From positions 17,519 to 81,518 of the IMG/VR virus record IMGVR_UViG_3300025466_000023: a DNA stretch of 64,000 nucleotides; one strand, written 5' to 3'. The position numbers were made by a program, and so were the translations under genes. This document shows, piece after piece, positions 4,529 to 20,252 of the stretch (the stretch's first letter is position 1; every line of letters starts with the position of its first letter). The notes below the pieces were generated by a model. That model was not told where the DNA came from. It saw only the letters and a list, made by a program, of their open reading frames with translations, and did not search any database. Source of the DNA: a virus.

Positions 4529-4529
4529 T

Positions 4530-5819: not shown

Positions 5820-5848
5820 GGAATACCTTTCTAATTGAACATAACAAT

Positions 5849-6111: not shown

Positions 6112-6112
6112 C

Positions 6113-7035: not shown

Positions 7036-7412
7036 TTATTTTTGTTTTTATAATCTGCTACTGCGGCTTTGATTGCGTCCTCTGCGAGGATTGAGCAGTG
7101 GATTTTAACAGGTGGAAGAGCCAGCTCTTCGGCGATGTCACTGTTTTTAAGAAGTCCCGCTTGGTCGATGTGCATTCCTTTGATCCATTCAGTAACCAAT
7201 GAGCTGGAGGCAATTGCTGATCCGCATCCATAAGTCTTGAATCGTGCATCTTCTATAATTCCTTCTTTGTTTACTTTGATCTGTAATTTCATTACATCGC
7301 CACAAGCAGGTGCTCCTACCATTCCTGTGCCAACTCCCTCTTCGTCTTTAGGGAATGAACCCACGTTGCGTGGGTTTTCGTAATGATCAATTACCTTGTC
7401 TGAATAAGCCAT
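7032..7412 (-). CDS. iscU: Fe-S scaffold IscU
   Basis: MAYSDKVIDHYENPRNVG...GAPACGDVMKLQIKV...FKTYGCGSAIASSS...LPPVKIHCSILAEDAIKAA. Confidence 0.97.
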   Translation of the reverse strand: MAYSDKVIDHYENPRNVGSFPKDEEGVGTGMVGAPACGDVMKLQIKVNKEGIIEDARFKTYGCGSAIASSSLVTEWIKGMHIDQAGLLKNSDIAEELALPPVKIHCSILAEDAIKAAVADYKNKNN

Positions 7413-7413
7413 A

Positions 7414-7731
7414 TTAGTTTGGTACTAGTACAGTTTTGTAACAATTACAACTAGCATCAAGGATAGCTTCCCAATGATAGCCCGCAGGCTGTGGCATCAC
7501 CGGAGCGGCTGGGGGAGGATAAACAGGCTGTGGTTGTACGTAAACAACGTTTGGCTGGACCGGACGAGCTATCTCGTATCCAATTACACCTCCGATTACA
7601 GTAGGCACTACCCACCCATAATTTGGACGATAAACATAGTGTCCGCCACCGTGGTGCCAACCTTCAGCATATGATGTCATGCACATGCTTAACCCTGCAG
7701 ATAAAATAATTGGTAACAATAGTTTTTTCAT
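7414..7731 (-). CDS. Secreted Pro-rich small protein
   Basis: Signal-peptide-like N-terminus, GWHHGGGH, Pro/Val/Tyr-rich, C-terminal CNC. Confidence 0.65.
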   Translation of the reverse strand: MKKLLLPIILSAGLSMCMTSYAEGWHHGGGHYVYRPNYGWVVPTVIGGVIGYEIARPVQPNVVYVQPQPVYPPPAAPVMPQPAGYHWEAILDASCNCYKTVLVPN

Positions 7732-7792
7732 AATAAGTACTCCTTCGTACTAATATAACGTTTGAACAACTCAAATAGTTGACTTGCATCAG

Positions 7793-7807
7793 TATTTATA
7801 TTAAATA
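7793..7807. promoter_or_regulatory. Back-to-back T4-type late promoters
   Basis: TATAAATA on minus (7793-7800) abutting TTAAATA on plus (7801-7807). Confidence 0.65.
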
Positions 7808-7812
7808 ATAGC

Positions 7813-8139
7813 ATGATTACACTAACAGAGCAAGCCCAAAAGAAAGTTTTATCGCTATTATCACAACGTGGTAAGGGGGCAGGTATCCGTTTAGGAGTTA
7901 AAACAACCGGTTGCTCTGGACTAGCTTATGTGTTAGAATATGTAGACGAGTACACTCCGGAAACAGGTGTTACCAACTTTGCCCATAACGAGTTTTGTGT
8001 GTTAGTTGACCACAAGAGCCTAGCTTATATGGACGGAATGGTTGTAGATTGGGTTCGCAACGGACTCAACGAGGGTTTTGAATTCCAAAACCCCAATGAA
8101 CGTGACAAGTGTGGTTGCGGAGAAAGTTTTAGAGTCTAA
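7813..8139 (+). CDS. iscA: A-type Fe-S carrier IscA
   Basis: RGKGAGIRLGVKTTGCSGLAYVLEYVD...GLNEGFEFQNPNERDKCGCGESFRV. Confidence 0.95.
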   Translation: MITLTEQAQKKVLSLLSQRGKGAGIRLGVKTTGCSGLAYVLEYVDEYTPETGVTNFAHNEFCVLVDHKSLAYMDGMVVDWVRNGLNEGFEFQNPNERDKCGCGESFRV

Positions 8140-8942
8140 CTATCGAACGTGTACCACTCGTACAAATTCATTTCGTTTTTACCAATCTTAGTAAATCTAT
8201 TTTTGAATCCATCAATTAGCTCTTTATTGATTTTATAGATTTCTTCTTTGGCCTCAGTGTCCGGGATAAAGTTTTCTATAGAGATTTTAATATTACCATC
8301 TAGTGAATGTAATGCTATTGCTACTCTGTGCGTATCGACATCTTGTGTTCGATGTATTATATCGCCCCTGCATAACAATAGATCTCCTGCTTTGATTTTA
8401 GGAGAGATTTTAATATCTTCAATATTGACATTTAGATACCATTCTTGATTGATATCATCTTCTATTACTTTTGTACGATTTCCCTCTGGAAAGAAACGTG
8501 TAGCTCCTTTACCTTTAAGTCTTTCGGCGCCAGCAGAATCATATTCAGCCAAGGTCTTATAACTTAAAACACTCAGTCCAGATTTTTCAACGTCGGGTTT
8601 GACAATAGGGATATAAAATTTTAATACACTATTATGATTCTTAAAGAATAGATAAGTTCCGTGATCCTGATGCCAATCTAAGTTCATCATAGTAGTATCT
8701 GAAAACAACCCGCCCGGAACAATCGTATCTGTATAAACAGGAGATTGCTTGATAATATCTCTTAACTTTGGCTCAAGTTGTTTGACTACAAATTCTGGAA
8801 CATCGTGAAATACTACCGTATCTGGACTTAAAGTAAGGGTAGACTTGCTTTTCATGTATTCTTTGATCAAAAAGATCAAATCATGTGTATTAAAAAAATC
8901 TGGGATAACAACAAATCCATGTTCTGTCAGTTCATTATACAT
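8136..8942 (-). CDS. PhyH-like Fe(II)/2OG dioxygenase
   Basis: HGFVVIPDFF, WHQDH, GDLLL..GDIIHRT...RVA. Confidence 0.7.
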   Translation of the reverse strand: MYNELTEHGFVVIPDFFNTHDLIFLIKEYMKSKSTLTLSPDTVVFHDVPEFVVKQLEPKLRDIIKQSPVYTDTIVPGGLFSDTTMMNLDWHQDHGTYLFFKNHNSVLKFYIPIVKPDVEKSGLSVLSYKTLAEYDSAGAERLKGKGATRFFPEGNRTKVIEDDINQEWYLNVNIEDIKISPKIKAGDLLLCRGDIIHRTQDVDTHRVAIALHSLDGNIKISIENFIPDTEAKEEIYKINKELIDGFKNRFTKIGKNEMNLYEWYTFDS

Positions 8943-8943
8943 A

Positions 8944-9711
8944 TCAGTCTCTTGTTAATATTTTTTCTTCAACCTTATCCCAAAAAGCTATTCTAGATTT
9001 TATAGCTGTAATTGCGGTATGTTCTGCTTCAATTATTTTTAAAGGATGATTCTCGCATAGTTCTTCTACTAAGTTGATAGAAGCTGGCCCGTGACTATCT
9101 CCATCTACTTCAATGTGTCTTTCTAGATAAAATGCAAATCGACTAGCTTCTATAGAATTAAGATCTAACTGAGCAATTAATCTTTGAAACATAGCAGGTA
9201 TTACTGTTTCTCTACCGTAAGTAAAGGCCGCCGCTATTTCGTGTACCTTTCCTCTTTGTATGATATCAAAAGTAGTCCTCATAAATTCTTGACTAGGGTC
9301 CGGAATAAAAGAATCTATCAAAGCAAAATCTATTCCTTCTTTTTCAACAGATTCTAAAAATTTCATTATGGGTCTAGTATCAGCGCCAATTTCTGCCATT
9401 GTTTGGCAGTATAGGTCAAAGTGACTAATGTGAGAATTACGAAAAGGATCTATATCGCTTTCTTCTGATAATATTATTTCGTTAATCAACCTGCCTAGTT
9501 TACGTTGTCTTGCTGAAGGTAACCACAGATCTCCGCTAGGACATATACGATGCTGTAGTGCCTTAGCCAAGCTCATAAAATCCCAAACGGCAAACACATG
9601 ATGCTCCATAAAGATTTTAAGGTCGTCGATAGACTGTATGGTATTAGTAACCAATAGAGAATGGTTTTCTAATAGGTGTTTATGCTGGTTGACTTTGGAT
9701 ATCTTTAGCAT
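8944..9711 (-). CDS. DUF3050 family protein (heme-oxygenase-like fold, putative diiron enzyme)
   Basis: FMEHHVFAVWDFMSL.K.LQ, RLINEI.L.EESD, SHFDLY, FTYGRE.VIP, YLERHIEVDGDSHGP. Confidence 0.85.
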   Translation of the reverse strand: MLKISKVNQHKHLLENHSLLVTNTIQSIDDLKIFMEHHVFAVWDFMSLAKALQHRICPSGDLWLPSARQRKLGRLINEIILSEESDIDPFRNSHISHFDLYCQTMAEIGADTRPIMKFLESVEKEGIDFALIDSFIPDPSQEFMRTTFDIIQRGKVHEIAAAFTYGRETVIPAMFQRLIAQLDLNSIEASRFAFYLERHIEVDGDSHGPASINLVEELCENHPLKIIEAEHTAITAIKSRIAFWDKVEEKILTRD

Positions 9712-11011
9712 CTTGTATCCCTGTTTCTACTAATTCAACGTCTTCGCCAAACAACAGTTTCAGTGCGGCATTTTGAACAGCACCGTAATAGACTTTTTCA
9801 TTTCTACAGTTTTTTAAAAAAACCTCGTCTGGAAATTCAATAGGACAACTAGATTTGCACAATCTTCTTACGTTACAATCTGCACAATGAGTTTTTTTTC
9901 TATTTAGATCCAACTGTACGATACGTATGCCTTTGAGATTATTAATAGTTCCTGCAATATACTTTTCATTTGTATGAGGACAAAGTCTCACGTTTCCTTG
10001 TACATCTATACTGAGCACGTCGCCCGCATCGGCTCCGCAGTTGGTAGTCATAGTAACCGGTATTTGATTCCTCATACTTAATCCGTATTGTACGGCTCCA
10101 GTCCTACTATCAAAAAGATTAGACTCCATTAGAGGAAAGTTTTTGCCTTTGCCTAGTTTGTGTAATTGCTCTATGCGAGCATCTAAGTATCTATTGATGA
10201 TCTTCTTAAATTCTAAAGTATCGTCACCGGTCATTACGTGATTGGTGCTGTTTTGACTATCTGTTTCATCATACGTCCGTCCTAATGTAAAACTTAAACT
10301 AGGAAATTTTAATTCTAAGCGATCACTAACAACTTTAAACCAATTGTTTATTGCAAACAGATCATAATTTTGTTTACTGATCACACAATTAAAACTATAC
10401 TGTACTTTAGGATATAGTGCATCGATGGCTTTAATTGCACCAGCAACAGATTCTTTATCAAATATATCATCACCTCGAATAAACTGTCCAGGTCCGTCAT
10501 GACTAATACCTATGTTTACTACAGCAGATAGGCTTTGGAAAAAGTCTACATGTTTTTGTCTTAGTGGGCTTCCATTAGTGCTGATAAAGAAATGTCTTTT
10601 AGGACCATCTAAATGTTTCATTACTGGTTGTATGTCGTTCCAGTACAAAAATGGTTCGCCACCCCATAGTTCTATTCTTTCTAAGTTTTCTAAATCCAAA
10701 TATGTATCTATAGACTCTATGAACTTATCTAACGCAGTATTCTTACTGCGTTCGTCGGGGTTTCCAATATCTTTCTGCATGCAATAATCGCAAGAATAGT
10801 TACAGGCATGTCCAAATAAAATACGCAACGCAACAGGTTTATTATGTTTCTTTCTAGTCCCGTGTGTCTTTTTGGCTTCTTCATAAAACTCTAACGGTTT
10901 TTCGGCAGGAAGGCTTACAGTTTCTCCTGCATCGTTTATGAGAGTGTTATTGTCTACATCATAGTAAACAACTCTGCCGCTTTGTTTTAGTTTAAATTTG
11001 CTTAGACTCAT
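9680..11011 (-). CDS. Radical SAM/SPASM protein 4 (start ATG 11011, ATGA overlap)
   Basis: CNYSCDYC, WGGEPF, STNG, ISHDG, C-terminal CADCNVRRLCKSSCP...C. Confidence 0.9.
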   Translation of the reverse strand: MSLSKFKLKQSGRVVYYDVDNNTLINDAGETVSLPAEKPLEFYEEAKKTHGTRKKHNKPVALRILFGHACNYSCDYCMQKDIGNPDERSKNTALDKFIESIDTYLDLENLERIELWGGEPFLYWNDIQPVMKHLDGPKRHFFISTNGSPLRQKHVDFFQSLSAVVNIGISHDGPGQFIRGDDIFDKESVAGAIKAIDALYPKVQYSFNCVISKQNYDLFAINNWFKVVSDRLELKFPSLSFTLGRTYDETDSQNSTNHVMTGDDTLEFKKIINRYLDARIEQLHKLGKGKNFPLMESNLFDSRTGAVQYGLSMRNQIPVTMTTNCGADAGDVLSIDVQGNVRLCPHTNEKYIAGTINNLKGIRIVQLDLNRKKTHCADCNVRRLCKSSCPIEFPDEVFLKNCRNEKVYYGAVQNAALKLLFGEDVELVETGIQDAKDIQSQPA

Positions 11012-12078
11012 TTTTTCTCTATTATTGGAATTGCGTTGACTTGATCCGGTTTGATCAGACCAAATTTGCATTTAATCCAACCGCTTTCTATAAGACTGTT
11101 ACAGTATCTAGTGTATGGTTTTAACATTATTCCCGGAATAAAGTTATAGTCATAGTTTACTTTATATGTATCAGTTAATTTGAAATATTCTCGAAACTTT
11201 GGATTATTTGTTTTTTCAATCCAATTTAAATAACGGCGCTGTTTGCCTTCTATCAACTTTATTAGCAACAGATCTTTATTAAATGGCTGTGATAAATCGT
11301 CTACGATCCACCAAGGCTCTTCACTTATATCGCTAGCATCATCGCTAGAAAAATAGAATCTATCATAAAACAAATGCGGGGCTTCCCGCTGTATTTGAAT
11401 TAATCCGTCATCTGTGCTATCAACCCATGTGTTTTGTTCTTCTGCCCATTGATGTTCTAGTATTCGTCTTTCGGCACTAAAATCATGATGTACCATATTG
11501 CGCATGCCATTTTTATTAGCATACTCAATAACGGGTTTTAGAGATTCTATATCTCCACAATCAACAAATTTGATTTTTCTAATAGGACTTGCATCGTTTA
11601 GTTTAGATAGTGCATCAAACAATTTATTTTGATTAACACTTTCTGCAAACTTAGAACTAATACTAATACTGGCTATGTTTTTAAACTTTATATCTTTAAT
11701 CATTCTAGCTGATCTAAAGATAGCATTGTCTGTAAAACTATATTCCATATTGTGAGCATGTGCTTGATACCAAGCAAATTGTTTTGGATAGTTTAGTTTA
11801 AGGAACATCATGTCGTCGGCTGTGCTAACAACTAGAAAATTGCTAAAAGCATCTTGCCAAAAATGTTCAGCTTTGCTGGTTATTTCTGGAAAATAACTAG
11901 GTAGGTTGTTTTTAAGATGTTTAAAATTTTTATCTATGTAACAGATTTTACAACCTGCATCACAATAATATCTAGTTCCCAAACTAAAATAGATATCATA
12001 ATTAATTGAACATAGAGAATCCTGAGATAGCCAATACTCATTGAGATCTATTGCTGTTTCAAAATTCCCATCTATCAT
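11008..12078 (-). CDS. Divergent radical SAM-like protein 3
   Basis: CDAGCKIC (CxxxCxxC) near the N-terminus; no GGEP and no SPASM cysteine set. Confidence 0.6.
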   Translation of the reverse strand: MIDGNFETAIDLNEYWLSQDSLCSINYDIYFSLGTRYYCDAGCKICYIDKNFKHLKNNLPSYFPEITSKAEHFWQDAFSNFLVVSTADDMMFLKLNYPKQFAWYQAHAHNMEYSFTDNAIFRSARMIKDIKFKNIASISISSKFAESVNQNKLFDALSKLNDASPIRKIKFVDCGDIESLKPVIEYANKNGMRNMVHHDFSAERRILEHQWAEEQNTWVDSTDDGLIQIQREAPHLFYDRFYFSSDDASDISEEPWWIVDDLSQPFNKDLLLIKLIEGKQRRYLNWIEKTNNPKFREYFKLTDTYKVNYDYNFIPGIMLKPYTRYCNSLIESGWIKCKFGLIKPDQVNAIPIIEKK

Positions 12079-13184
12079 TGTTTAATTTCAAATCCTTCTG
12101 TAATACCTACCCAGTCGACTAAATTCTTTTGTTGTTTAAGTTTATCCGTATGCATGATTGCAAAGTTCATTATCTGATAAAAATACTTGCAATTGCCTTT
12201 AGGTTCCTCGTTAAACATTTTATACATATACTTCAATCCACAACTAGCACGACTAGGACAAGTTACGCATGAAGGCAATATCTTATCATCGTCGCCTATG
12301 TCTTTCCAAACCACAGGAGTATCTGTGTCCCACTGTCCTGTTCTAGCTTCGTCTCTGCGATATTCTAACCATTCAAATTCTGGATAGATATAACCGTCTG
12401 GCCCTAATATTAATTTACTATGTTCTGCAAAATAGGCCTTGTCTATAAACTGATAATTTCCATCTATGAACACATTAATTTTTTTAATATAGAGTATTTG
12501 TAAGAACTCTAAAAATGCTTCAAAGAACTGTTTTAAATCAATGTTGTCAACTATCACATCGAATTTCTGTTTTCCTCGTTTATGTCTTAGCGGAATTATG
12601 TTTACACTAGTACATCTAGTAGTATAACAGGTATTGACAAAATTAGCAATATTATTAAAACTAAAACTTCTACGATCATCTATTGGTAAAACCCATTGCC
12701 ATTTCCATTGTTCGCAATTTTCATTTAGCACCTTGGCCATAGCTTCAACATCAAATGATTCTCTGTTTTGCTCTTGGAACATGAAATCATAACTAACTGT
12801 TGCGGCCAGTATACCTTTATATTTTTCAAAGAACTCTTTGTTTTCCACTACCAAAGATCCATTTGTAGTCATGCTAACTAGCCAGTTATTCCTACGTGCA
12901 ATAGGTTCTAGCCATTCCATTATCTCATACATCCGCTTAATAAACAGCAGAGGTTCACCTCCATGAAAGGAGATTCTAGTTATACTATTTGTTTGTTTTT
13001 CTGCCCAAAGAAAGAAATTCTTTAGTTTGTCAACTTGCCGAGGCCCTACTGATTGTCCACCAAGGTCCTCGATATAATCTCTATCGCAATAAACACAATC
13101 AAAGTTACATTTATTACCTAGGTATATTGTAACTATGCGTATTTTATCTAAGGGATTAGGATTTACTAGATTTATTCTTGACAT
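12075..13184 (-). CDS. Radical SAM protein 2 with partial SPASM/Twitch
   Basis: CNFDCVYC, FHGGEPLL, TTNG, DGYIYP, CVTCPSRASC...C. Confidence 0.9.
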   Translation of the reverse strand: MSRINLVNPNPLDKIRIVTIYLGNKCNFDCVYCDRDYIEDLGGQSVGPRQVDKLKNFFLWAEKQTNSITRISFHGGEPLLFIKRMYEIMEWLEPIARRNNWLVSMTTNGSLVVENKEFFEKYKGILAATVSYDFMFQEQNRESFDVEAMAKVLNENCEQWKWQWVLPIDDRRSFSFNNIANFVNTCYTTRCTSVNIIPLRHKRGKQKFDVIVDNIDLKQFFEAFLEFLQILYIKKINVFIDGNYQFIDKAYFAEHSKLILGPDGYIYPEFEWLEYRRDEARTGQWDTDTPVVWKDIGDDDKILPSCVTCPSRASCGLKYMYKMFNEEPKGNCKYFYQIMNFAIMHTDKLKQQKNLVDWVGITEGFEIKQ

Positions 13185-14916
13185 TTTTAATCAACCTGTG
13201 ATTAAATGTTTCTGTAAGAGCTTTAGTTTCAGACTGTAATATTATTAAATGCAACAATCCTAAGAAAAATGCTCGTTGAGCAGGATCTAGTGTTTGACTA
13301 TCCATTTTGTTATCTGTTGGTGCTATGCTTCCTTTATCTAAAATAAAGTAATAGAAATCACTAATTTCCATAATACTGTCATCAACTAAACTTACAATTT
13401 CTTTAACAAAATTATTAGCACCTTGGGTAAGATTTATTTCTAGATTCATTATTTTACGCCACAGTGATAATAGTTTTCTATAATCATCAATTTCATCTAT
13501 TCCGTTATGGACTTTATCTAAAGAAGGATGGTAATTATAAAAATAATAAAATAACAAATAACTTAATCCTCTAACAAATGCAGGATGTTCGCCCATTGTT
13601 TGTTGTGCAGAAACAATCTTTTCAAACTTCAATTTAAACTGTTTTTTAGCAACGTCTTCTTGCAGATCAACAAACAACTTAACAATTTTTTGACACATGT
13701 CGTCCGGACGAAACATTTTTGTTCCTGTGTCCAAATTGCCAGCAGGACATTGATAGCAGGCATTTTTGTAATCACAAGTTTGACATTGTTCTTCTTCCTC
13801 AAACATCTTAGCATATTCTTTTTGGAAGTTTCTATATCTATCAATATAGATTTTGTCTTGCCAAAGGTTACCTAATATTGTTTCGCCTGTAGGGCCTGCC
13901 TTTTGATTAGTAAAGAAATAGCATCCGCTAAAGTCACCTGATCCATCAATAGCAATCATGTCTGCACCAATCATGCAGTTTTCTTCGCCCTTCTGTCCTA
14001 CCCCTTCTGAAAAGTGTATGGTCATATCTTCGTGTTCTTCTAGTACTGCTACTATATCATCGTGCAGTTTTTGCCATTCTTCTTCTCGCCATTGAACGAA
14101 TCCTCTAGCACTATCTAATACTAATGGATGAACGACTATTCTGCGTATACCTCTAGAATATAAATTGTCAACAAAGTCTCTAAAATAAGGAGCATTTTCT
14201 CTAGCAAGAGTAATCCTCATTGTAACACGTTTTGCGGCTTTAACATCTGCGGGCATACGACTTATGCAGTCCATTACTTTATCGATATCCTTCTGCCCGA
14301 TTTCTCTATGGTCAACTTCAGAGCGATTTGTATCAAGACTGATTAATACTCCTGTAAAGTCGTATGAAAAATATTCATTTATAAATTCATCTGTTAACAA
14401 AATACCGTTTGTTACCAGACCAATTACTGTATTTGTTTCTCCTGTACAGGTTAGAGATATTTCTTGTTCATTGGTCTTTAAGAATTGAAGTATTAGCTCT
14501 TTGTGTATCAAAGGCTCACCGCCAAAGAACTGAAACACTTTACGTTGTCTTTGGTTGCTGTCTCTAAGGAATCTAAATGCCGTTAGTAGACTTTCATTTG
14601 TAAATCTACCAAAGTCTTTGTTATGCTGTTCGTAACAGTACGTACAACTTAGATTACAAGCATTGGTTAATATTAAATTCATCTGCTTCAAATCTTGAAA
14701 CAAAAATTTACTATCTTTAAAACTTAATATTTGTTCAGTCGGCTTAGGTAGTACGCTTACAAGTCTGTTGGTTTTTTCTAACCCTTTAGGGGTTATAATA
14801 TTTGAGCTATGATATGCAAAGGATCCGTCTTCTGAAACACTAACACTAGATTTATGATCTAGGAATCTTTTCTTTTGTGCTTCAGTTTTGATCCAGGCAA
14901 TTGGATGTTCTGCCAT
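13156..14916 (-). CDS. Radical SAM/SPASM protein 1 (start ATG 14916, TAATG-coupled to the Cys-rich gene)
   Basis: CNLSCTYC, FFGGEPL, VTNG, ISLD, CMIG...GC, CQTCDYKNACYQCP...C, helical C-terminal extension. Confidence 0.92.
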   Translation of the reverse strand: MAEHPIAWIKTEAQKKRFLDHKSSVSVSEDGSFAYHSSNIITPKGLEKTNRLVSVLPKPTEQILSFKDSKFLFQDLKQMNLILTNACNLSCTYCYEQHNKDFGRFTNESLLTAFRFLRDSNQRQRKVFQFFGGEPLIHKELILQFLKTNEQEISLTCTGETNTVIGLVTNGILLTDEFINEYFSYDFTGVLISLDTNRSEVDHREIGQKDIDKVMDCISRMPADVKAAKRVTMRITLARENAPYFRDFVDNLYSRGIRRIVVHPLVLDSARGFVQWREEEWQKLHDDIVAVLEEHEDMTIHFSEGVGQKGEENCMIGADMIAIDGSGDFSGCYFFTNQKAGPTGETILGNLWQDKIYIDRYRNFQKEYAKMFEEEEQCQTCDYKNACYQCPAGNLDTGTKMFRPDDMCQKIVKLFVDLQEDVAKKQFKLKFEKIVSAQQTMGEHPAFVRGLSYLLFYYFYNYHPSLDKVHNGIDEIDDYRKLLSLWRKIMNLEINLTQGANNFVKEIVSLVDDSIMEISDFYYFILDKGSIAPTDNKMDSQTLDPAQRAFFLGLLHLIILQSETKALTETFNHRLIKNVKNKSSKS

Positions 14917-15185
14917 TACAATGTACCACGAGTGCAATCACATTGACATTGACAATCGCAAACAGTAGTAAAATCATCATAATAAGTGTGAGTATGATTT
15001 ACAAGATTATTAAGAACGTTTGCCATTGCGGCAAATGTTGAAGCCGAAATACGTTGTCCAGACCCCACAGTTCCAGGTACGCTTACGCCTTGATTAGGTG
15101 CGGAAGTATAGTTAGCGTCCACGTTTCCGTCGGTTACGATCTGTGCATCTACTGTTGCGGTATTTGTTGAAGTTGTATCAGCCAT
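14916..15185 (-). CDS. 89-aa protein with C-terminal CDCQCQCDC tract; candidate radical SAM substrate
   Basis: ...LNNLVNHTHTYYDDFTTVCDCQCQCDCTRGTL; stop overlaps the rSAM1 start. Confidence 0.75.
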   Translation of the reverse strand: MADTTSTNTATVDAQIVTDGNVDANYTSAPNQGVSVPGTVGSGQRISASTFAAMANVLNNLVNHTHTYYDDFTTVCDCQCQCDCTRGTL

Positions 15186-15187
15186 AA

Positions 15188-16225
15188 TTAATCTCCAGTG
15201 TATTTATAACTGCTATTTCGATAAACATCTAAAGTGACTACGCATTTGTTTTCTAGTCCACCTAGACTTCTAGCTGTCTGTGAAAGACCCATAACAGTAT
15301 TTTCATTCCATCTAATGTGTATATACCCTTGTTCTTGTCCATCTTTAAACTCAAAATATACCTTATTACTGTCCGGATCTCTAGTCCAATTTAGGTTAGA
15401 TATTACTTTAATGTTTACTTTTGGAACTTCTTCTTGATAGCGCCACTGAAAAATGCTGTTTCCGAATGGTTTTAACCAAAACTTATCACCCGCAACAATT
15501 TTAGAATTACCTAAATAGGCAATATTCTTGCTCATTGAGGGTCTAAAGATTATGTCTCCTATAGACCCAAAATGTGCCTCCGTAGTCCAAAACCTAACTT
15601 CTTCATCTTCCTCTGTATCAAAATACGGAGAAATAGCTGTTAAGTCTGGATTAGGCACTAGATAATAGATAGGCAGTTCTCCTGTTCTATATAAGAAAAA
15701 CCATACAATACTTAAAACTTTGCTAGAGCCCGATTTGACCAAAGAACGATCGGGTAAGTAGACAAATTCTGATTTCAAATGACCTTCTATTGTCTCTTCA
15801 TTTTGTGCTAACCTATTTTCACTATCGAGCAATCGAGTAATCCATCTACTGTTGTTAGTAATATATTGATTATCAACATTAGTATTTTCATCAAATACTG
15901 TAGCAAAGGCAACACTTCTGCTAGCAGGATCTTCATCTAAGTAATCAAATGCAGTCTGCATATCTATGTCAATCGAAAGTCTTTCTCTATTAGGCAGATG
16001 TTGTTTAAAGAAGTGATACAACGTTAGCGTAGATTCTTTAGTTTTATTTCTACCTATAGTGATATTAAAATTATTCTTTGAAAAACAAGATAATCTTTGA
16101 TAATAATCCCTTGCTTCCCATATACCTAATCCCTTGTAAAATCCCCCTACATTCCACGCATTTTGTATATCTCCCCAAGGAGTTGGATAATGAGGCAACT
16201 GTTGCACTATTACTGTTTTTTTCAT
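15188..16225 (-). CDS. Hypothetical protein, 345 aa
   Basis: Long ORF coupled to both neighbours; no motif recognised. Confidence 0.7.
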   Translation of the reverse strand: MKKTVIVQQLPHYPTPWGDIQNAWNVGGFYKGLGIWEARDYYQRLSCFSKNNFNITIGRNKTKESTLTLYHFFKQHLPNRERLSIDIDMQTAFDYLDEDPASRSVAFATVFDENTNVDNQYITNNSRWITRLLDSENRLAQNEETIEGHLKSEFVYLPDRSLVKSGSSKVLSIVWFFLYRTGELPIYYLVPNPDLTAISPYFDTEEDEEVRFWTTEAHFGSIGDIIFRPSMSKNIAYLGNSKIVAGDKFWLKPFGNSIFQWRYQEEVPKVNIKVISNLNWTRDPDSNKVYFEFKDGQEQGYIHIRWNENTVMGLSQTARSLGGLENKCVVTLDVYRNSSYKYTGD

Positions 16226-16590
16226 TTTATTGATACCTTTAATATCTTCATACTACCTGTAAATCTAATATCTTCATGTACTTTAACATCGATATTAATA
16301 TATTGTATTATACCTTTGTTGGTATTACGTTCTTTCATTAATGTATGCCTTACTGTTATTGGTTCGTCTAAGTATATAGATTTTTTAAAACGAAACTGTT
16401 GTTCAATTAACCAAACAGTAAAATAATTAATATCTGTTTCACCCAATGCCTTGGCCGCGGTTAATAAACCAGGCACTACTACTCTATCAGAATCTGCTCG
16501 ATGCTGTGGGTTTCTATCGTTTCCCATCGCACAAAATGCAGTTATTTCTTCTTGAGTTACTTTAATAGGAAATTCAACATAGCCTATCAA
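16222..16590 (-). CDS. MaoC-like hotdog-fold dehydratase
   Basis: FCAMGNDRNPQH...VVPGLL...QFRFKKSIYLDEPI. Confidence 0.7.
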   Translation of the reverse strand: MIGYVEFPIKVTQEEITAFCAMGNDRNPQHRADSDRVVVPGLLTAAKALGETDINYFTVWLIEQQFRFKKSIYLDEPITVRHTLMKERNTNKGIIQYINIDVKVHEDIRFTGSMKILKVSIK

Positions 16591-17401
16591 TTACATCTCC
16601 ATAGGTCATTGTTATTCCTAATGCAGACAAAGATAATTTGATCATATCAAGTTCTCCATCTGTTACTTGATTACAATAATCCGCATCGATAAATTCTAAA
16701 GTGTATGTTCTAGTAGTTGACTCTTCTGTGTCAACATCAGATGCTGAGCCGCTGAACATGAAACCGCTGTGTTCTACTTTAGAAACCCACTTGACCATAA
16801 ATGCTTGTTCGATGCTATCACCTGGACTAATCTTGGGCGGATACTTAATTGTTTTTGGAATCTCAATACTAATATCTCGACTCCACAATTTGTTTGGATT
16901 GCTGTCTATACAATGATATTCAGCGATAGCCAAGTGCGTTCTATCAAAACAACTAGAATTAAAAGCAGAATGAAAACGACCCGCTGTGTTATATCTATAA
17001 CCATACCCGTCAGCCCGTGTTGGAAAAACTTCTGTTTCTTCAAAATCAAAAAAGAAACAACCGGGATTATCATTAATGTGTAAATGATATTTGTTATCAG
17101 GATCCCTATGCCAACGAAGGCACTGATTAGGAATTAGATTTAGAAATGTTCCTCGACTGACTTTAATTGGTAAAGACCTAATAAACTTTTCAAATACAGT
17201 TCCTTGTATCTCAGGCACAACATTTGGGTTTTCGATATAAAAATACTTAAGGCGATCGACTCCCTCTTTTGGTAAACAAGCATTCAGCATGCCCATTCTA
17301 CTCATGTTATGTTTGATAGCGTTCCATTCTTCTAACACCTGCTGGGGATCGACACGTACGGCAGTACGTTCGATAATATTACGCATAAACTGTCTACTCA
17401 T
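16574..17401 (-). CDS. Asp/Asn beta-hydroxylase-like Fe(II) oxygenase
   Basis: LRWHRD...YHLHI...FHSAFNSS..DRTHL. Confidence 0.65.
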   Translation of the reverse strand: MSRQFMRNIIERTAVRVDPQQVLEEWNAIKHNMSRMGMLNACLPKEGVDRLKYFYIENPNVVPEIQGTVFEKFIRSLPIKVSRGTFLNLIPNQCLRWHRDPDNKYHLHINDNPGCFFFDFEETEVFPTRADGYGYRYNTAGRFHSAFNSSCFDRTHLAIAEYHCIDSNPNKLWSRDISIEIPKTIKYPPKISPGDSIEQAFMVKWVSKVEHSGFMFSGSASDVDTEESTTRTYTLEFIDADYCNQVTDGELDMIKLSLSALGITMTYGDVIDRLC

Positions 17402-17727
17402 TATGCTCGTGTCCTAATGCTAGTGTTGTGTATTGAAATGTAGGTTTCTAAATCAAAGTGTCCAAATGGATTATTATCAATTTGTTCAGCTATTTCGTAT
17501 TCTAAATCACCGTACCAATTATTTTCCTTGGCAAACTGTTCCGGGTCACAATGCAGTTTTTCAGCTTGTTTATAGGCACTATAAGTTCCTACAACATGTT
17601 GATGTTCATCATATTTTAAACATACAGCAACTAACACGGCTAGATCACGTGAAGATTTTGTCCATGTATATTCTATTTTTTCTAAGTTGCCCGTTCTATG
17701 TCTAGAAGGTCTTTCACGTGAAAACAT
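17401..17727 (-). CDS. Hypothetical protein, 108 aa
   Basis: AAGGGG SD and TATAAATA upstream; first gene of the coupled run. Confidence 0.65.
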   Translation of the reverse strand: MFSRERPSRHRTGNLEKIEYTWTKSSRDLAVLVAVCLKYDEHQHVVGTYSAYKQAEKLHCDPEQFAKENNWYGDLEYEIAEQIDNNPFGHFDLETYISIHNTSIRTRA

Positions 17728-17751
17728 TGTTTAACCCCTTATTATTAGCGG

Positions 17752-17759
17752 TATTTATA
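17752..17759 (-). promoter_or_regulatory. T4-type late promoter heading the radical SAM operon
   Basis: Perfect TATAAATA in the intergenic gap. Confidence 0.65.
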
Positions 17760-17777
17760 AGTGCTACTTTAATGATT

Positions 17778-19004
17778 TTAAAATGCTGGTATACCGACAA
17801 CAACAGACGAACATTTACCACCAAAACCGTAGGAGTTTTTAACAAAATGAGATTTAGTTATTGTTTTAGTAGACTTTACGATTGTAATGTCTTTTTCGAA
17901 TTCACAACTGGTAAAATTAGCCACGGGTGGCACTTGTTTAGTTTCTAAACTTTTAATTCCATATATAAGTTCTATAAGACCACTAGCACTCATTGTATGA
18001 CCTATATGGCCTTTATTGCTAGTAATATATGCATTGGGAAATAATTTGTTCATAGCATCGTATTCTATTACATCTCCGGCAGGTGTAGATGTTGCATGAG
18101 CCGACACAAATGCAATGTCATCTTCAATAACTCCACTTCTAGTTAATGCCTGAACTGTGGCACTGGTTGCTCCCATACCATCTTCAGTTGGACTTGTAGG
18201 ATGTGCGGTTTCTGTATAAAATCCTATGCCACATATTTCAGCAAGAATAGTAGCACCTCTAGCCTGTGCATGTTCTAAAGTTTCTACCACAACAACTCCT
18301 GCACCTTCTCCTAAAATAAATCCATCACGTGTATCGCTAAAGGGTTGGCTAATATAATCTTCATCGCGCTTGCTCAATGCACGTAAAACTTGGAAGAAGT
18401 ACATATCGTATTTTTCAACCATAGCATCAGTACCACCAACAACTGCTATGTCACAATCCCCTGCGGCTAAGCATTTAATGCCATAATCTAAAGTGTAGAT
18501 TCCCGTAGCACATGCACTAACCATTACTGTGCTAGGACCATGCCACCCGTATTTGGCCGCAACTGCACCCGTAGTAAAGTCATAGCTAATGCCTAATGTT
18601 TGAAATGGGTTGGCTTTAGTTTTGCCAGAATTGTAAGCTATTTCGACTATGTTTCTAGCATCGTTGCCGCCACTGATACTAGATATTAATGTAGCTACAT
18701 TGGTAGTAGTAAATCCACTTTGTCTAACTGCTTCGTCTACGGCCAACATTGCGGCCTTGGTCAATAAGGGCCAATTGCGTGACTCGTGTTCTGTATAAAC
18801 TGTTTGTTCTAATTGGTCTAGATCGGGAAGCTCAAAGGCTCTATGGACTAGCATGGCGGGATCTGTACGAGTATCCCAACTATCGACCTTAGGGGTGGGC
18901 TGTTTACTGTTGAACAATTTGGTAAAGGTATTATCAACACCAGAACCTAGTGAATTTACTAGGCCCATGCCTGTGATAACAAATCGTGTGCTGGGAAGTT
19001 TCAT
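17778..19004 (-). CDS. Beta-ketoacyl-ACP synthase (FabF/FabB family)
   Basis: VITGMGLVNSLG, SACATG (Cys), RDGFILGEGAG, HATSTPAGD, KGHIGHT, NSYGFGG. Confidence 0.93.
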   Translation of the reverse strand: MKLPSTRFVITGMGLVNSLGSGVDNTFTKLFNSKQPTPKVDSWDTRTDPAMLVHRAFELPDLDQLEQTVYTEHESRNWPLLTKAAMLAVDEAVRQSGFTTTNVATLISSISGGNDARNIVEIAYNSGKTKANPFQTLGISYDFTTGAVAAKYGWHGPSTVMVSACATGIYTLDYGIKCLAAGDCDIAVVGGTDAMVEKYDMYFFQVLRALSKRDEDYISQPFSDTRDGFILGEGAGVVVVETLEHAQARGATILAEICGIGFYTETAHPTSPTEDGMGATSATVQALTRSGVIEDDIAFVSAHATSTPAGDVIEYDAMNKLFPNAYITSNKGHIGHTMSASGLIELIYGIKSLETKQVPPVANFTSCEFEKDITIVKSTKTITKSHFVKNSYGFGGKCSSVVVGIPAF

Positions 19005-19050
19005 ATCAGCTGTATTTAAAGCTGATATTTTTTTAAATCACTAATAGTGA

Positions 19051-19428
19051 TTATCTAGTTGTATTATCGTTTTCGTAGTGTGTATGACCAGCAATAGTGT
19101 TTAATACACTGATTGCGGCATTTACTCCGGCCGCAGAAATTTGTTGCCCTGAGCTAGCAGTTCCTATACTTATTGACTGTGCGGGGCCATTAGTGTTGTT
19201 TGCAACACTATAAGTGTTCCTATCACCATTACTACCAAATGTAGCTTCTTGCTCGATATCAGTCCAGCTATGATAATGGCTCGCAAACTGATTAATAGCA
19301 TTGCAAATACTGTTAATGTCCGAGGCATTAATTCTGTTTCCCGAATAAAAAGCGCCTGTGTTAGGGCTCGGAGTACCTGCTTGCCAATTTGGACCGCCTG
19401 TAGTTCCCGTTCCTGAACCTGTTCCCAT
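19051..19428 (-). CDS. 125-aa Gly/Asn/Ser/Thr-rich protein with two SG..I.A...HxH repeats
   Basis: Two internal repeats similar to the 89-aa Cys-rich protein. Confidence 0.7.
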   Translation of the reverse strand: MGTGSGTGTTGGPNWQAGTPSPNTGAFYSGNRINASDINSICNAINQFASHYHSWTDIEQEATFGSNGDRNTYSVANNTNGPAQSISIGTASSGQQISAAGVNAAISVLNTIAGHTHYENDNTTR

Positions 19429-19429
19429 A

Positions 19430-19990
19430 TTATGCTCCTAGTGTGATTACCTTAGTATATATCGTTTGATCTCCGCCTTGTGGAACTAGATAATATATGT
19501 TCCTTGCTTGAATATTATATTCTGTTAATAGCGGTCGAATAAAGATATTTTCAAATAGTGTAGTTAATTGCGCAGTATTACTGTTACAACTGTTTACTTG
19601 GTTCTCTAACCATTCTACAGATTTGGCACTATTGTTAATCCAATCTTGTGCAACAAAGTCACTATAGATATTTTCGTACCCTGGATCTAGAAAAATATCT
19701 TGGCTAGCATCGTACCCTTGGGCAACAAGGCTAGTAGTTAACCAATCAGCTAATTTCATTTGTCTAGTAGAGCCCATTTTCAGCACATCAAAAAAGTCTT
19801 GATTAGATGTGTTATTAATTACTCCAATAATCTGTTGTCCTGAAACGGGAGATCCGTTTAGTGTCAATGCTTGCATGCAGGGATGACTTAATGCAAATTG
19901 AATAAAGATGCTAGAAGTGGAATAAGTGTTAGTAGCTGTATTGATTGCTACGGCAGTCCATGAAAACGTAGATGAAGTTGTGTCTGACAT
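19430..19990 (-). CDS. Hypothetical protein, 186 aa
   Basis: Coupled ORF; Ser/Thr-rich N-terminus. Confidence 0.65.
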   Translation of the reverse strand: MSDTTSSTFSWTAVAINTATNTYSTSSIFIQFALSHPCMQALTLNGSPVSGQQIIGVINNTSNQDFFDVLKMGSTRQMKLADWLTTSLVAQGYDASQDIFLDPGYENIYSDFVAQDWINNSAKSVEWLENQVNSCNSNTAQLTTLFENIFIRPLLTEYNIQARNIYYLVPQGGDQTIYTKVITLGA

Positions 19991-20244
19991 TAGCTGTGAT
20001 CTCCACCATAGTTTTTAACAGGACCATTTGGCGCTGTTTTAACTTTCTTGCCACGTAAGGGCTTTCCAGAACCTTTCTTACCCTGTGTACCCGATCCGTC
20101 TGTGTGATCGGAGTCATGGGCAACATAGCCCCTGCTAACGCATTGTGCATAACGCACATTGGATAAGCGTGAATGCCCCACCGAGCATTGGCTACGAGTG
20201 GGGGCTTTGAGTTTCTTTTCAGTTAATAGTTCGGTGATGCGCAT
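19990..20244 (-). CDS. Small basic protein, probable head-internal protein
   Basis: MRITELLTE N-terminus, Lys-rich; TAAATA-N5-ATG. Confidence 0.6.
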   Translation of the reverse strand: MRITELLTEKKLKAPTRSQCSVGHSRLSNVRYAQCVSRGYVAHDSDHTDGSGTQGKKGSGKPLRGKKVKTAPNGPVKNYGGDHS

Positions 20245-20252
20245 ACAGTTAT

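Follow-up and report, generated by a model that had tools for sequence, protein, structure and literature searches.

Which substrate do the four CxxxCxxC proteins of this phage locus act on, and does their product leave the cell as a peptide or remain part of the phage? The genes form a minus-strand run at 8136-19990 of the analysed DNA (the window, 64,000 nt), and they adjoin a gene for an 89-aa protein with a ladder of alternating cysteines. The ORF listing agrees with an earlier sequence-only reading both on where this run lies and on its gene order, and the cassette genes overlap or lie at most 50 nt apart (Table 1).

Table 1. Coordinates in the window of the run, its neighbouring genes and two motif copies.
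Feature	Position	Strand	Basis
HesB/IscA-type	6113-6442	-	inspection of translation only
2OG-Fe(II) oxygenase	6442-7035	-	Pfam 2OG-FeII_Oxy_5 2.6e-13
IscU	7032-7412	-	Pfam NifU_N 1.4e-52
IscA-type	7813-8139	+	Pfam Fe-S_biosyn 2.2e-18
268-aa protein, last gene of run, weak PhyH similarity	8136-8942	-	Pfam below cut-off
DUF3050 (255 aa), haem-oxygenase-like putative diiron protein	8944-9711	-	Pfam 5.4e-81
rSAM4, radical SAM/SPASM, full seven-Cys motif	9680-11071	-	Pfam, cysteine map
rSAM3, CxxxCxxC protein	11008-12078	-	phrog_36229 (unknown function) 7.5e-36
rSAM2, radical SAM, partial C-terminal Cys cluster (CxxCx5C...C)	12075-13184	-	Pfam Radical_SAM 1.4e-09
rSAM1, radical SAM/SPASM, seven-Cys SPASM motif, C-terminal helical domain	13156-14916	-	Pfam, cysteine map
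89-aa protein: variable N-terminus, one helix-HxH module, YYDD, CDCQCQCDC-TRGTL; proposed rSAM substrate	14916-15185	-	ORF listing, alignment A1
345-aa beta-rich core protein, always beside Cys-tailed gene	15188-16225	-	profile HMM
TATAAATA, 15 nt before 89-aa ATG, then GGAG	15201-15208	-	motif search
122-aa protein, accessory	16222-16590	-	ORF listing
275-aa beta-hydroxylase-like protein, accessory	16574-17401	-	PDB 7v4f
108-aa protein, accessory	17401-17727	-	ORF listing
TATAAATA, 24 nt before 108-aa ATG	17752-17759	-	motif search
FabF/FabB-type beta-ketoacyl synthase (408 aa), optional	17778-19004	-	Pfam ketoacyl-synt 3.2e-32, Ketoacyl-synt_C 1e-24
125-aa protein, two helix-HxH modules (SHYHSW, GHTHYEND), proposed partner of Cys-tailed protein	19051-19428	-	module HMM, phrog_31780
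186-aa protein, directly upstream of 125-aa HxH gene	19430-19990	-	ORF listing

Conservation of the gene set

We compared 20 loci that encode an rSAM1 homologue (38-66% identity): the window, 13 IMG/VR loci, RP12, L017-L020 and L039. Each of them carries a small ORF of the form H-x-H-(4 to 10 residues)-(Cx)n, mostly with RGxx at the end, so that no radical-SAM set without the Cys-rich gene was found among them; in the Ralstonia jumbo phage RP12 this ORF is unannotated. It adjoins rSAM1 except in L001, L016, L018 and L019, where a gene of the 345-aa family (ORF075 in RP12) lies between the two. The TAATG coupling noticed earlier is present in the window, the TAA of the 89-aa gene sharing its A with the ATG at 14916 that we took as the start of rSAM1 (its ORF spans 13156-14937), and an ATGA-type overlap occurs at this junction in 7 of the 14 loci for which it was printed. 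The 345-aa family was found in 19/20 loci with a profile HMM from alignment A3, and DUF3050 in 10 of the 12 other loci reaching past rSAM4 (absent from L016 and L019). The conserved core consists of the two-module HxH protein, the 345-aa family, the Cys-tailed protein, four rSAMs and usually DUF3050. This gene set of a large freshwater phage is conserved and previously undescribed.

Several genes that the sequence-only reading had included in the cassette fall outside this core. Homologues of the ketoacyl synthase and of the 108-aa, 275-aa and 122-aa proteins occur in one of the 19 other loci, L039 (66%, 63%, 63% and 59% identity, respectively), and a homologue of the PhyH-like gene in none of the 19. 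The genes between the HxH and 345-aa genes may be lineage-specific tailoring enzymes or unrelated insertions. The 275-aa protein, described earlier as an Fe oxygenase, has no Pfam match, but over residues 63-158 it aligns with PDB chains that carry the name Beta-hydroxylase (7v4f, E 5e-07). The label MaoC for the 122-aa protein lacks support, there being no match in Pfam, NCBIfam or PHROG and a best PDB sequence match of E 0.64; the PhyH likeness of the 268-aa protein likewise stays under the Pfam cut-off (E 0.0077, 17 bits vs 22). Neither the 108-aa nor the 186-aa protein matches a Pfam or PHROG family; in 9 of the 14 loci searched, the latter has a weak homologue at the corresponding place (21-24% identity, E 3e-08 to 2e-04). 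IscU and IscA genes lie beside the cassette elsewhere in L004 only.

The run had also been described as headed by a late promoter. A copy of the motif TATAAATA does precede the 108-aa gene, but its count in the window is no more than chance (5 vs 5.46 expected; 62/100 shuffles reach 5). Each of the five copies has an ORF start on its own strand no more than 110 nt downstream (binomial p 1.6e-6); the zone ahead of starts covers 7.0% of position-strand combinations, and the test uses a crude set of 81 ORFs and is biased by AT-rich spacers. The copy before the 89-aa gene is contained in the final codons of the 345-aa gene, and coding constraint is therefore possible there.

The Cys tail and its candidate enzymes

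The C-terminal end of the 89-aa protein is CDCQCQCDCTRGTL; the Cys run that had been taken for its terminus is present, but five further residues follow it. Residues H64, H66, Y69, D70, D71, C76, C78, C80, C82, C84, R86 and G87 are invariant in alignment A1. The family comprises 77 representative clusters, and tail statistics were taken over the 60 representatives with a C-terminal Cys ladder. These tails hold three (14 representatives), four (15), five (19) or six (12) cysteines, and 50/60 have the RGxx terminus. The intervening X residues (n=209) are Asn (106), Gln (52), Ala (14), Asp (14), Glu (9) and others (14); since Ala is among them, the acceptor need not be a carboxamide or carboxylate.

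Three of the four CxxxCxxC proteins match Pfam Radical_SAM. SPASM-type cysteines had been ascribed to three of them as well; according to the cysteine maps, this holds fully for rSAM1 and rSAM4, but only partially for rSAM2 and not for rSAM3, which also has no Pfam or rSAM model match and no GGEP motif. Both rSAM2 and rSAM3 are kept in relatives, the latter at 26-58% identity. rSAM4, for which the ATG at 11011 is the probable start, matches the NCBIfam SPASM domain TIGR04085 with 28.4 bits (cut-off 27). The best NCBIfam matches of rSAM1 are PapB (4.6e-34), QhpD, the CXXX-repeat maturase and the SCIFF maturase, with scores all far below the curated cut-offs (e.g. PapB, 118 vs 340 bits). Its best PDB sequence match is CteB (5wgg, 1.8e-14), which is also among the top Foldseek hits (2e-13), together with ChlB with leader peptide, anSME, SkfB, TigE and SuiB; the structures nearest to rSAM1 are thus the peptide maturases CteB, ChlB, anSME, SkfB and SuiB. 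An RRE was not found: residues 1-85 of rSAM1 and of rSAM4 have no Pfam match of any kind up to E 10, and residues 1-52 of rSAM1 have a pLDDT <50 in the AF2 model.

For characterised small-molecule or DNA-modification families, none of the enzymes scores up to a curated NCBIfam cut-off. Co-occurrence and enzyme resemblance make the Cys-tailed small protein the best candidate substrate for these peptide-type rSAM/SPASM enzymes, as the sequence-only reading had supposed. From the family resemblance of the rSAMs we infer that the likeliest chemistry would be radical thioether formation (ranthionine- or sactionine-type) that joins Cys sulfur to carbon atoms of the X residues. All four rSAMs are retained with a three-Cys tail (L017) or a six-Cys tail (L019), and four rSAM-type proteins for tails of three to six cysteines argue against one enzyme per cysteine. 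Radical SAM enzymes are O2-sensitive, and the O2 requirement that DUF3050 presumably has sits awkwardly with this. The haem-oxygenase-like fold of DUF3050 is assigned in an excerpt of PMC4520260.

HxH modules and the predicted partner

The module HMM matches the 125-aa protein twice (E 6e-13 and 1e-10), and homologues of this protein are found in 13/13 IMG/VR loci, RP12, L017 and L039. The two small proteins are homologous: both match phrog_31780, and hhalign of A1 against A2 gives a probability of 90.8 (E 1.2e-6, 32 columns). Together they hold exactly three helix-HxH modules, split 2+1, 1+2 or fused 3-in-1 in relatives. The 2+1 arrangement is recovered by the module HMM in 16/20 loci; RP12, L018 and L019 (the last split 1+2) reach three modules when read by eye, and L020 is an incomplete 2.9-kb contig. 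A single HxH is present in 47 of the 60 tailed representatives and a pair in 12; in the remaining one (P0156, 230 aa), all three are fused.

The complex model of the 125-aa and 89-aa proteins has an ipSAE of 0.69 (best of three controls, 0.00), which is a model confidence from shallow 12-row alignments; the ipSAE mark is reached by 58/80 solved complexes and 2/110 mismatched pairs, a rough calibration since our own alignments were used. Agreement between runs covers 60% or more of the contacts, with a partner pLDDT of 61 or higher. In the model three helices are joined, His53, His116 and His117 of the 125-aa protein lie near His66 of the 89-aa protein, and the Cys tail is outside the interface. 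The modelled contacts suggest that the two proteins probably form a folded heterodimer. Excerpts of PMC12407873 and PMC6116203 describe three HxH motifs that bind Fe in fibres and spike apexes, and the predicted three-module unit is reminiscent of the His6 iron site in trimeric fibres and spikes of phages.

The original proposal of a RiPP-like pathway survives in part: rSAM maturation of the Cys-tailed protein is backed, but a free peptide as its substrate is not, the HxH module being shared with the 125-aa protein. Because the putative substrate would be a folded partner, not a free peptide, "protein maturation" fits better than "RiPP"; for an rSAM with a protein substrate, an excerpt of PMC13692751 offers CrpC/CrpA as precedent. 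As noted before, no exporter or peptidase is recognised with Pfam. The product is probably a thioether-linked fibre-module component rather than a secreted RiPP.

A proposed fibre-associated maturation model

In L007, L017, L019, L039 and RP12 the cassette is bordered by tail-fibre or structural genes, and the HxH gene of L017 lies between rSAM3 and rSAM4. In the window, about 6 kb that include Fe-S and ligase genes separate the cassette from the closest tail-type gene (657-2381), and ORF074 and ORF075 of RP12 are annotated as hypothetical, not as virion proteins. It is from gene neighbourhood that we infer a virion location. The AF2 model of the 345-aa protein (pLDDT 70.5, pTM 0.74) has a likeness to Ig-like sandwiches that is confined to the C-terminal residues 220-340 (Z <=5.8).

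We propose, with a probability of roughly 0.58, a conserved phage protein-maturation cassette in which the rSAMs modify the Cys tail of a fibre-like HxH metal-binding unit. The 125-aa protein with two modules and the 89-aa protein with one would assemble a single pseudo-threefold unit, and its six histidines would create a site for a metal, probably iron, as on the axis of the trimeric structures. At its C-terminus one chain alone would run on as a short exposed tail, (Cys-X)n then x-Arg-Gly-x-x, to be modified by the coupled, CteB/PapB-like rSAM1 and the three further rSAM-type proteins. DUF3050 may contribute an oxidative step, and the phage IscU and IscA would supply Fe-S clusters. The product would stay a protein; its site of action would probably be within or on the tail-fibre apparatus, together with the 345-aa beta-rich protein.

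Conservation of the cysteine-tailed gene with the radical SAM genes

Searches of viral contigs with rSAM1, the first of the four radical SAM proteins of the cassette, recovered 13 loci at 45-66% identity. Each of these 13 carries an ORF of 67-71 aa ending H-x-H-x-[FY]-Y-D-D-[YF]-x-T-[VA]-(C-x)5-R-G-x-x, which lies directly before rSAM1 in 12 loci and one gene further off in the remaining one (L016). The Ralstonia jumbo phage RP12 encodes the same enzymes in the same order, with an unannotated 65-aa ORF that ends CNCNCACTRGSL. Four more close loci were found on contigs of prokaryote genomes, three of them MAG contigs labelled as Alteromonadales, Bdellovibrio and Phycisphaerales and the fourth an Ewingella americana scaffold of 253 kb. 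Each of these has the tailed ORF, which is also present in L039, a locus reached through the ketosynthase. Radical SAM sets lacking the Cys-rich gene, which the sequence-only reading had named as evidence against its proposal, were therefore not encountered, the tailed ORF being present in 20 of the 20 loci found. Among 18 more distant genome-contig loci (identity of 33% or less), 6/18 examined (L021-L024, L026 and L030) gave no comparable tailed ORF. There are 407 homologues of rSAM1 at E ≤1e-20, with names that are generic at most, on contigs of up to 187 kb, and the tailed protein forms 77 clusters at 50% identity in a profile search of 1.84 billion representatives.

Neither megablast of the region nor tblastn of the 89-aa tailed protein matched anything in the phage collection, the latter despite the RP12 homologue found by reading ORFs. 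Likewise, a pattern scan of viral contigs with the 275-aa protein of the run gave no match, yet L039 encodes a copy that is 63% identical; pattern scans thus miss relatives, and the locus counts are lower bounds. Viral contigs were also scanned for seven alternating Cys codons, and 80 of at least 120 matching stretches were analysed: an in-frame ladder was present in 56 of them, nearly always as a simple-sequence repeat (CSCSCS, CWCWCW, CRCRCR), and none of the 80 loci had a match to the rSAM1 profile. The cassette is conserved and widespread. Literature searches found no paper describing it; the RP12 paper, in its passage on these genes, merely lists the radical SAM genes and calls the DUF3050 protein MgoB-like (PMC5468394).

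In the Ewingella locus (L019) the rSAM1 protein is extended at its N-terminus by ~170 aa rich in Cys, Gly and His, three small genes on the reverse strand lie between rSAM1 and rSAM2, and a TnpB-like ORF of 419 aa (by inspection only) is found nearby. The size of the scaffold suggests a jumbo phage or a prophage. A Salmonella enterica assembly includes a 246-kb contig, jumbo-phage-sized, encoding a member of the tailed family (P0167, EHM1384083.1) with two modules and six Cys that is close to the Ewingella protein.

In the window itself, the minus-strand run stands as first described, with genes that overlap or lie no more than 50 nt apart; CDCQCQCDCTRGTL is the end of the 89-aa protein, and the TAATG coupling of its gene to rSAM1 is present. 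Family scans of the run identified a beta-ketoacyl synthase, Radical_SAM in three of the four CxxxCxxC proteins and DUF3050 (PF11251, 5.4e-81, 272.1 bits against a gathering score of 22.2, with model positions 2-233 of 233 covered), and those of its flanks IscU, an IscA-type gene and a 2OG-Fe(II) oxygenase. Some of the labels given from the sequence alone lack support: the 122-aa "MaoC" protein matches no Pfam, NCBIfam or PHROG family and its best PDB sequence match has an E of 0.64, while the 268-aa "PhyH-like" protein scores under the Pfam cut-off. The "Fe oxygenase" label of the 275-aa protein is also a weak one, PDB chains named Beta-hydroxylase (E 5e-07) being its sole matches. The motif of the proposed T4-type late promoter, TATAAATA, does precede the 108-aa and 89-aa genes, but it occurs five times where 5.46 copies are expected; in a crude placement test all five copies are a short distance upstream of the start of an ORF on their own strand.

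The IMG/VR virus record to which the window belongs is 81.5 kb long and has a CheckV completeness of 23%, from which the source phage is estimated to be roughly jumbo-sized, and a terminase, helicases, a DNA ligase and a tail-type protein encoded in the window confirm that it is a phage. Freshwater and lake metagenomes of 20 studies, 13 of them possible sources of the window, contain DNA near-identical to it; among the 22 runs listed with such DNA, none is an RNA run. A partial Fe-S assembly kit adjoins the cassette, a cell-wall hydrolase gene lies close to the run on its other side, and iron oxygenases are abundant in this phage.

HxH modules and the predicted two-protein complex

The 89-aa protein and the 125-aa protein of the run have in common a module of ~30 residues, in which an amphipathic helix is followed by HxH. 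The two small-protein families align with each other in hhalign (probability 90.8, E 1.2e-6) and both match phrog_31780. A module HMM finds two modules in one protein and one in the other in 16 of the 20 loci; RP12, L018 and L019 reach three by eye, and the L020 contig is truncated. The Ewingella locus has the opposite split, with one module in a protein of 85 aa and two in the 122-aa tailed protein. Among 60 ladder-ended representatives, that is, proteins with the alternating-Cys stretch at the C-terminus, 47 have one HxH, 12 have two and a single one, the fused 230-aa protein P0156, has three. No longer fused forms of the 125-aa family were found at E ≤0.001 among proteins of 266-2000 aa, which is weak evidence. 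This is the pattern expected of a three-part assembly: the module total stays fixed at three while modules shift from chain to chain.

The model of the complex of the two proteins has an ipSAE of 0.69, as against 0.00 for the best of three controls; that mark was reached by 58 of 80 solved complexes and by 2 of 110 mismatched pairs, counts that apply approximately since own alignments were used. At least 60% of the contacts were common to the model runs, and the partner had a pLDDT of at least 61. The modelled complex has its three helices packed against one another, its histidines in contact and the Cys tail outside the interface, so that three HxH motifs around one axis are indicated by the module counts, by the fused form and by the His-His contacts of the model.

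Three HxH motifs around one buried iron are described for T4 gp37, for R-pyocin fibres and for spike apex domains such as that of P2 gpV, six His surrounding the single metal, in the passages of PMC6116203 and PMC12407873 that deal with them. The present arrangement differs from these fibres and spikes in that two chains or one fused chain, and not a homotrimer, supply the three motifs, and in that each motif follows an amphipathic helix; the likeness is one of motifs, and the metal site is here a predicted one.

Two further members of the family depart from the common architecture. In P0151 (256 aa) the Cys ladder lies within the chain, ahead of a Pro-rich linker and a domain of 180 aa, while in P0195 (198 aa) the module is followed by a Gly-rich, beta-rich domain in place of the ladder. 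Both look like modular structural proteins.

The radical SAM enzymes and the proposed chemistry of the tail

The Pfam Radical_SAM cut-off (PF04055, 29.5 bits) is exceeded by rSAM1 (63.4), rSAM2 (38.8) and rSAM4 (44.6), whose CxxxCxxC motifs are at residues 87, 26 and 90, respectively; rSAM3 has the motif at residue 39, with the Pfam match absent. The SPASM feature of seven Cys, corresponding to two auxiliary 4Fe-4S clusters, is complete in rSAM1 and rSAM4, partial in rSAM2 (four such Cys) and absent from rSAM3. Of the SPASM models, TIGR04085 is matched by rSAM4 (28.4, cut-off 27), and the Pfam SPASM score of rSAM1 (18.7) is under the cut-off of 21.5.

The top NCBIfam matches of rSAM1 are PapB, QhpD (second-best, 1.8e-23), a CXXX-repeat maturase and the SCIFF maturase, all far under their cut-offs. 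PapB (NF047865, cut-off 340 bits) is matched at 118.1 bits by rSAM1, 51.1 by rSAM4 and 45.0 by rSAM2; for rSAM1 the scores are 82.9 against 453 bits for QhpD (TIGR03906), 79.7 against 425 for the SCIFF maturase CteB (TIGR03974) and 44.1 against 625 for StsB (NF045574). The 89-aa protein matches no NCBIfam or Pfam family, so that there is no match to a SCIFF-type precursor, and of the CxCxCx4GxGxG that marks an StsB precursor the tail has the CxCxC without a GxGxG after it, ending x-R-G-x-x. Both by sequence and by fold CteB is the closest solved relative of rSAM1: Foldseek with the AF2 model (pLDDT 71.7) ranks CteB first, followed by ChlB with its leader peptide, anSME, SkfB, TigE and SuiB, with viperin and MoaA further down and PqqE also among the matches. 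By sequence and by fold, with family matches that are all under their cut-offs, rSAM1 is thus a new subfamily of peptide/protein maturases, outside any characterised one. An additional helical domain, which matches no family, is made up of its residues ~406-563. A search for an RRE gave no Pfam match within the N-terminal 85 residues of either rSAM1 or rSAM4, even with E as high as 10, and residues 1-52 of rSAM1 have an AF2 pLDDT below 50. The scan of the 20 proteins at 6442-20963 detected no peptidase or transporter family.

As in CteB/CteA (PDB 5WGG/5WHY) and PapB/PapA, a small Cys-rich gene directly precedes the gene of a seven-Cys rSAM/SPASM enzyme. In contrast with these systems, four rSAM-type proteins are encoded instead of one; the substrate is, according to the model, a folded HxH-module protein with a partner and not a leader-plus-core peptide; Cys stands at every second residue with Asn or Gln between; an RRE is not detected; and the cassette is phage-encoded and placed in tail-fibre modules. 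QhpD thioether-links the Cys-rich QhpC, and the product remains a protein. The same fate is described for CrpA of Methanococcus voltae, a Cys-rich protein thioether-linked by the rSAM/SPASM enzyme CrpC encoded next to it, in the relevant passage of PMC13692751. Both pairs resemble the present cassette in that the rSAM/SPASM gene adjoins that of a Cys-rich protein, but they are cellular systems of archaea and bacteria with one rSAM enzyme and with no known HxH module, partner protein or phage or fibre context.

The ladders of the 60 representatives hold three (14), four (15), five (19) or six (12) Cys. Asn (106) and Gln (52) account for most of the 209 spacer residues, the remainder being Ala (14), Asp (14), Glu (9) and others (14), and 50 of the 60 proteins end R-G-x-x. 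By analogy, these spacers may be acceptors, since they are residues that radical thioether enzymes use or tolerate as such; Asp and Glu are thioether acceptors in PapA and QhpC. That an alternating CxCxC motif can serve as an rSAM substrate is known from StsA, in which the rSAM/SPASM enzyme StsB (NF045574) makes thioethers (passage on StsA in PMC10288494). The acceptors described there are those of a downstream GxGxG, and a hairpin results, whereas here 4 to 5 residues follow the ladder, GxGxG is lacking and the Cys number varies from 3 to 6. For NxxcB, the passage in PMC9389541 describes a radical thioether from Cys to the beta-carbon of Asn and names residues that are found between the Cys here; read from the sequence, N-C-N-C holds overlapping N-x-x-C spacings, comparable to NxxcA. 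NxxcA is, however, a short streptococcal quorum-linked peptide, the likeness is one of residues and spacing, and the chemistry of the present tail is a proposed one. Two other schemes were considered and rejected. One rSAM enzyme per Cys does not agree with the four rSAM-type proteins being kept whatever the Cys number, with tails of three Cys as with tails of six, and a StsA-like hairpin with upstream acceptors does not agree with the varying Cys number and with a YDD segment that is common to HxH modules without a tail.

The tail could instead be a ligand of a metal or of an Fe-S cluster, as a carrier, a scaffold or a second metal site that continues the His6 site, and not an rSAM substrate at all, the rSAM enzymes building or inserting a cluster or cofactor or acting elsewhere. 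Runs of Cys-X-Cys-X put all thiols on one face of the strand, the tail comes after a probable metal site, IscU and two IscA-type genes adjoin the cassette in the window, and retention of all four enzymes regardless of the Cys number would agree with such a role. Nevertheless, we consider it unlikely, though the strongest of the alternatives, because a ladder of variable length, from three to six Cys with no preferred value, fits poorly with a defined cluster site, the spacers are Asn or Gln in 158 of 209 positions, and the closest relatives of the enzymes are peptide cross-linkers and not NifB, HydE or HydG. Moreover, IscU and IscA lie near the cassette in just two of the 20 loci, the window and L004.

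A classical RiPP, in which the helix-HxH part would be a leader or recognition element and the modified core would be cleaved from it and set free at lysis, to serve in killing bacteria, in signalling or against host defence, is harder to reconcile with the data. The supposed leader is a conserved folded module common to a second protein, the module count of the pair is kept, fused forms exist, and the complex model passes its controls; for the core, no peptidase or transporter was found, the cassette is placed in tail-fibre modules, and the ladder of P0151 runs on into further protein. Although sacti- and ranthipeptide clusters typically show this layout, with the gene of a small precursor coupled to that of an rSAM/SPASM enzyme, and StsA-type precursors carry CxCxC (again in the StsA passage of PMC10288494), we rate such a peptide as distinctly improbable.

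Variable gene content, tail-fibre context and proposed role

Comparison of the loci by tblastn, blastp and profile HMMs defined a core made up of the two-module HxH protein, the 345-aa family, the tailed protein and, where the locus reaches far enough, rSAM1-4. The 345-aa family is present in 19 of the 20 loci, RP12 having ORF075 in its place. DUF3050 is found in 10 of the 12 other loci that extend past rSAM4, the exceptions being L016 and L019. Further genes that had been counted as part of the cassette do not belong to the core by this measure: those of the ketosynthase and of the 108-aa, 275-aa and 122-aa proteins recur in L039 only (59-66% identity), where they again stand between the genes of the HxH protein and the 345-aa protein, and the 268-aa gene recurs in no other locus. 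This place is a variable slot that is filled differently in other lineages, and it has the look of either a site for tailoring enzymes or a hot-spot of gene insertion; its enzymes, together with the ketosynthase of the window, hint at lipid or side-chain tailoring. BLASTP detected no similarity between the 275-aa oxygenase of the window and the Asp_Arg_Hydrox protein of L012.

Positions of features in the window and in the compared loci
Feature	Locus or protein	Position	Remark
65-aa Cys-tailed ORF	L001 (RP12, NC_041911)	10793-10990	between ORF074 and ORF075; absent from RefSeq annotation
Slot: class-III aminotransferase	L005	7581-8855	
Slot: class-III aminotransferase	L007	7588-8862	
Slot: class-III aminotransferase	L010	7583-8851	
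Slot: Asp/Asn beta-hydroxylase (Asp_Arg_Hydrox) and two FA_desaturase proteins	L012	6754-8875	
Slot: extra FA_desaturase	L039	9235-10023	
Slot: B12-binding radical SAM enzyme	L017	543-2561	
111-113-aa protein	L007	15929-16264	directly after DUF3050; phrog_3304 'L-shaped tail fiber protein assembly', 2.6e-26
111-113-aa protein	L017	10466-10807	directly after DUF3050; phrog_3304 'L-shaped tail fiber protein assembly', 2.6e-26
Whole cassette	L019 (Ewingella americana E4 scaffold8.1, 253 kb)	1-17653	adjoins phage tail-like genes
Fe-S kit: IscU, IscA-type carrier, 2OG-Fe(II) oxygenase	Window	6113-8139	one IscA-type carrier, Pfam-confirmed
Fe-S kit: second HesB/IscA-type gene, 105-aa signal-peptide-like protein	Window	6113-8139	second HesB/IscA-type gene by translation reading only
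SleB-type cell-wall hydrolase	Window	20253-20963	Pfam Hydrolase_2, 6.4e-17; just upstream of the run
481-aa protein with 2OG-Fe(II) oxygenase domain	Window	24751-26196	phrog_61, 6e-32
SPASM cysteines	rSAM1	C314, C332, C378, C381, C387, C390, C408	
SPASM cysteines	rSAM4	C345, C364, C396, C399, C405, C409, C422	

For the 345-aa protein, Foldseek against the PDB returned TM scores of at most 0.20 and the ESM Atlas gave no usable match, while the wide VIA-align search returned Ig-like sandwiches alone, over residues 220-340 and with Z of at most 5.8. Its predicted model is rich in beta structure, resembles Ig domains in the C-terminal part and shows no recognisable enzyme fold.

The surroundings of the cassette are those of a tail-fibre module in several loci. 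In L007, L017 and L039 it lies between genes called by PHROG as tail fibre, virion structural or tail-fibre assembly genes; in RP12 it follows two annotated virion structural proteins, and on the Ewingella scaffold a minor-tail-like protein. In the window the nearest tail-type gene is ~6 kb away. Where the phrog_3304 protein is present (L007 and L017), it is followed by a conserved protein of 71-75 aa and then by a large structural protein.

The contents of the slot could also be taken to mean that the rSAM, DUF3050 and accessory enzymes (ketosynthase, desaturases, hydroxylases, aminotransferase) make up a small-molecule or lipid pathway, an auxiliary metabolic island in a tail-fibre hot-spot with the HxH proteins as neighbouring fibre genes. 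Lipid-type enzymes do occupy the slot between the HxH and 345-aa genes in several lineages: the window and L039 have a ketosynthase, L039 also has one FA_desaturase, L012 has two of these and Asp_Arg_Hydrox, and L005, L007 and L010 have the aminotransferase. DUF3050, moreover, was first named from the mgo small-molecule operon, according to the passage in PMC5468394. These accessory genes, however, vary by lineage and are absent from L004, L016, RP12, L018 and L019, whereas the rSAM set and the Cys-tailed gene never part. The stop/start overlap of the Cys gene with rSAM1, the HxH gene inside the rSAM operon of L017 and the similarity of the rSAM enzymes to peptide maturases also count against such a pathway, which we consider clearly improbable.

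SPASM enzymes make PQQ and mycofactocin. An analogous pathway, in which the C-terminus would be modified by the SPASM enzymes and excised as a redox cofactor or metal chelator used in infection, is very improbable: the strict distance from the ladder to the C-terminus and the RGxx ending (50/60) recall C-terminal core peptides, PqqE is among the Foldseek matches of rSAM1 and an oxidase (DUF3050) is present, but neither a peptidase nor a partner dehydrogenase using the cofactor was found, and the variable Cys number and the tail-fibre context speak against one defined cofactor.

Most likely, and at somewhat better than even odds in our estimate, the cassette serves to cross-link the exposed Cys/Asn/Gln tail of a two-chain pseudo-trimer that is held by HxH motifs and belongs to a tail-fibre module. 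That the tailed protein is the substrate of the rSAM enzymes is well supported by the conservation and the coupling of the genes; the formation of thioethers, the binding of a metal and the location in the virion are what we infer. A more specific form of this proposal is possible but doubtful: the two-chain or single-chain pseudo-trimer with its His6-iron site may be a symmetry-breaking cap for a trimeric fibre or spike, the single tip of which would be stapled into a rigid thioether ladder by the four rSAM enzymes and, in some lineages, further hydroxylated, aminated or lipidated by the slot enzymes. In that case the point of the virion that contacts the host would be a RiPP-like, enzymatically hardened structure, and this would be a new class of post-translational modification of virions and a new use of rSAM/SPASM chemistry.

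Cross-linking by rSAM/SPASM enzymes is already known from secreted bacterial peptides and a few cellular proteins, and we found no paper that places it on a protein of a phage structural module. If the main proposal is correct, DUF3050 and two uncharacterised protein families would gain a first functional context. The cassette reaches cultured systems (the Ralstonia phages RP12/RP31, with contigs in Ewingella and Salmonella assemblies), and the His6 pseudo-trimer with its thioether ladder would be a natural scaffold on which to study several rSAM enzymes sharing one substrate. The phages would then spend at least eight genes, besides Fe-S assembly genes, on chemically finishing one small protein.
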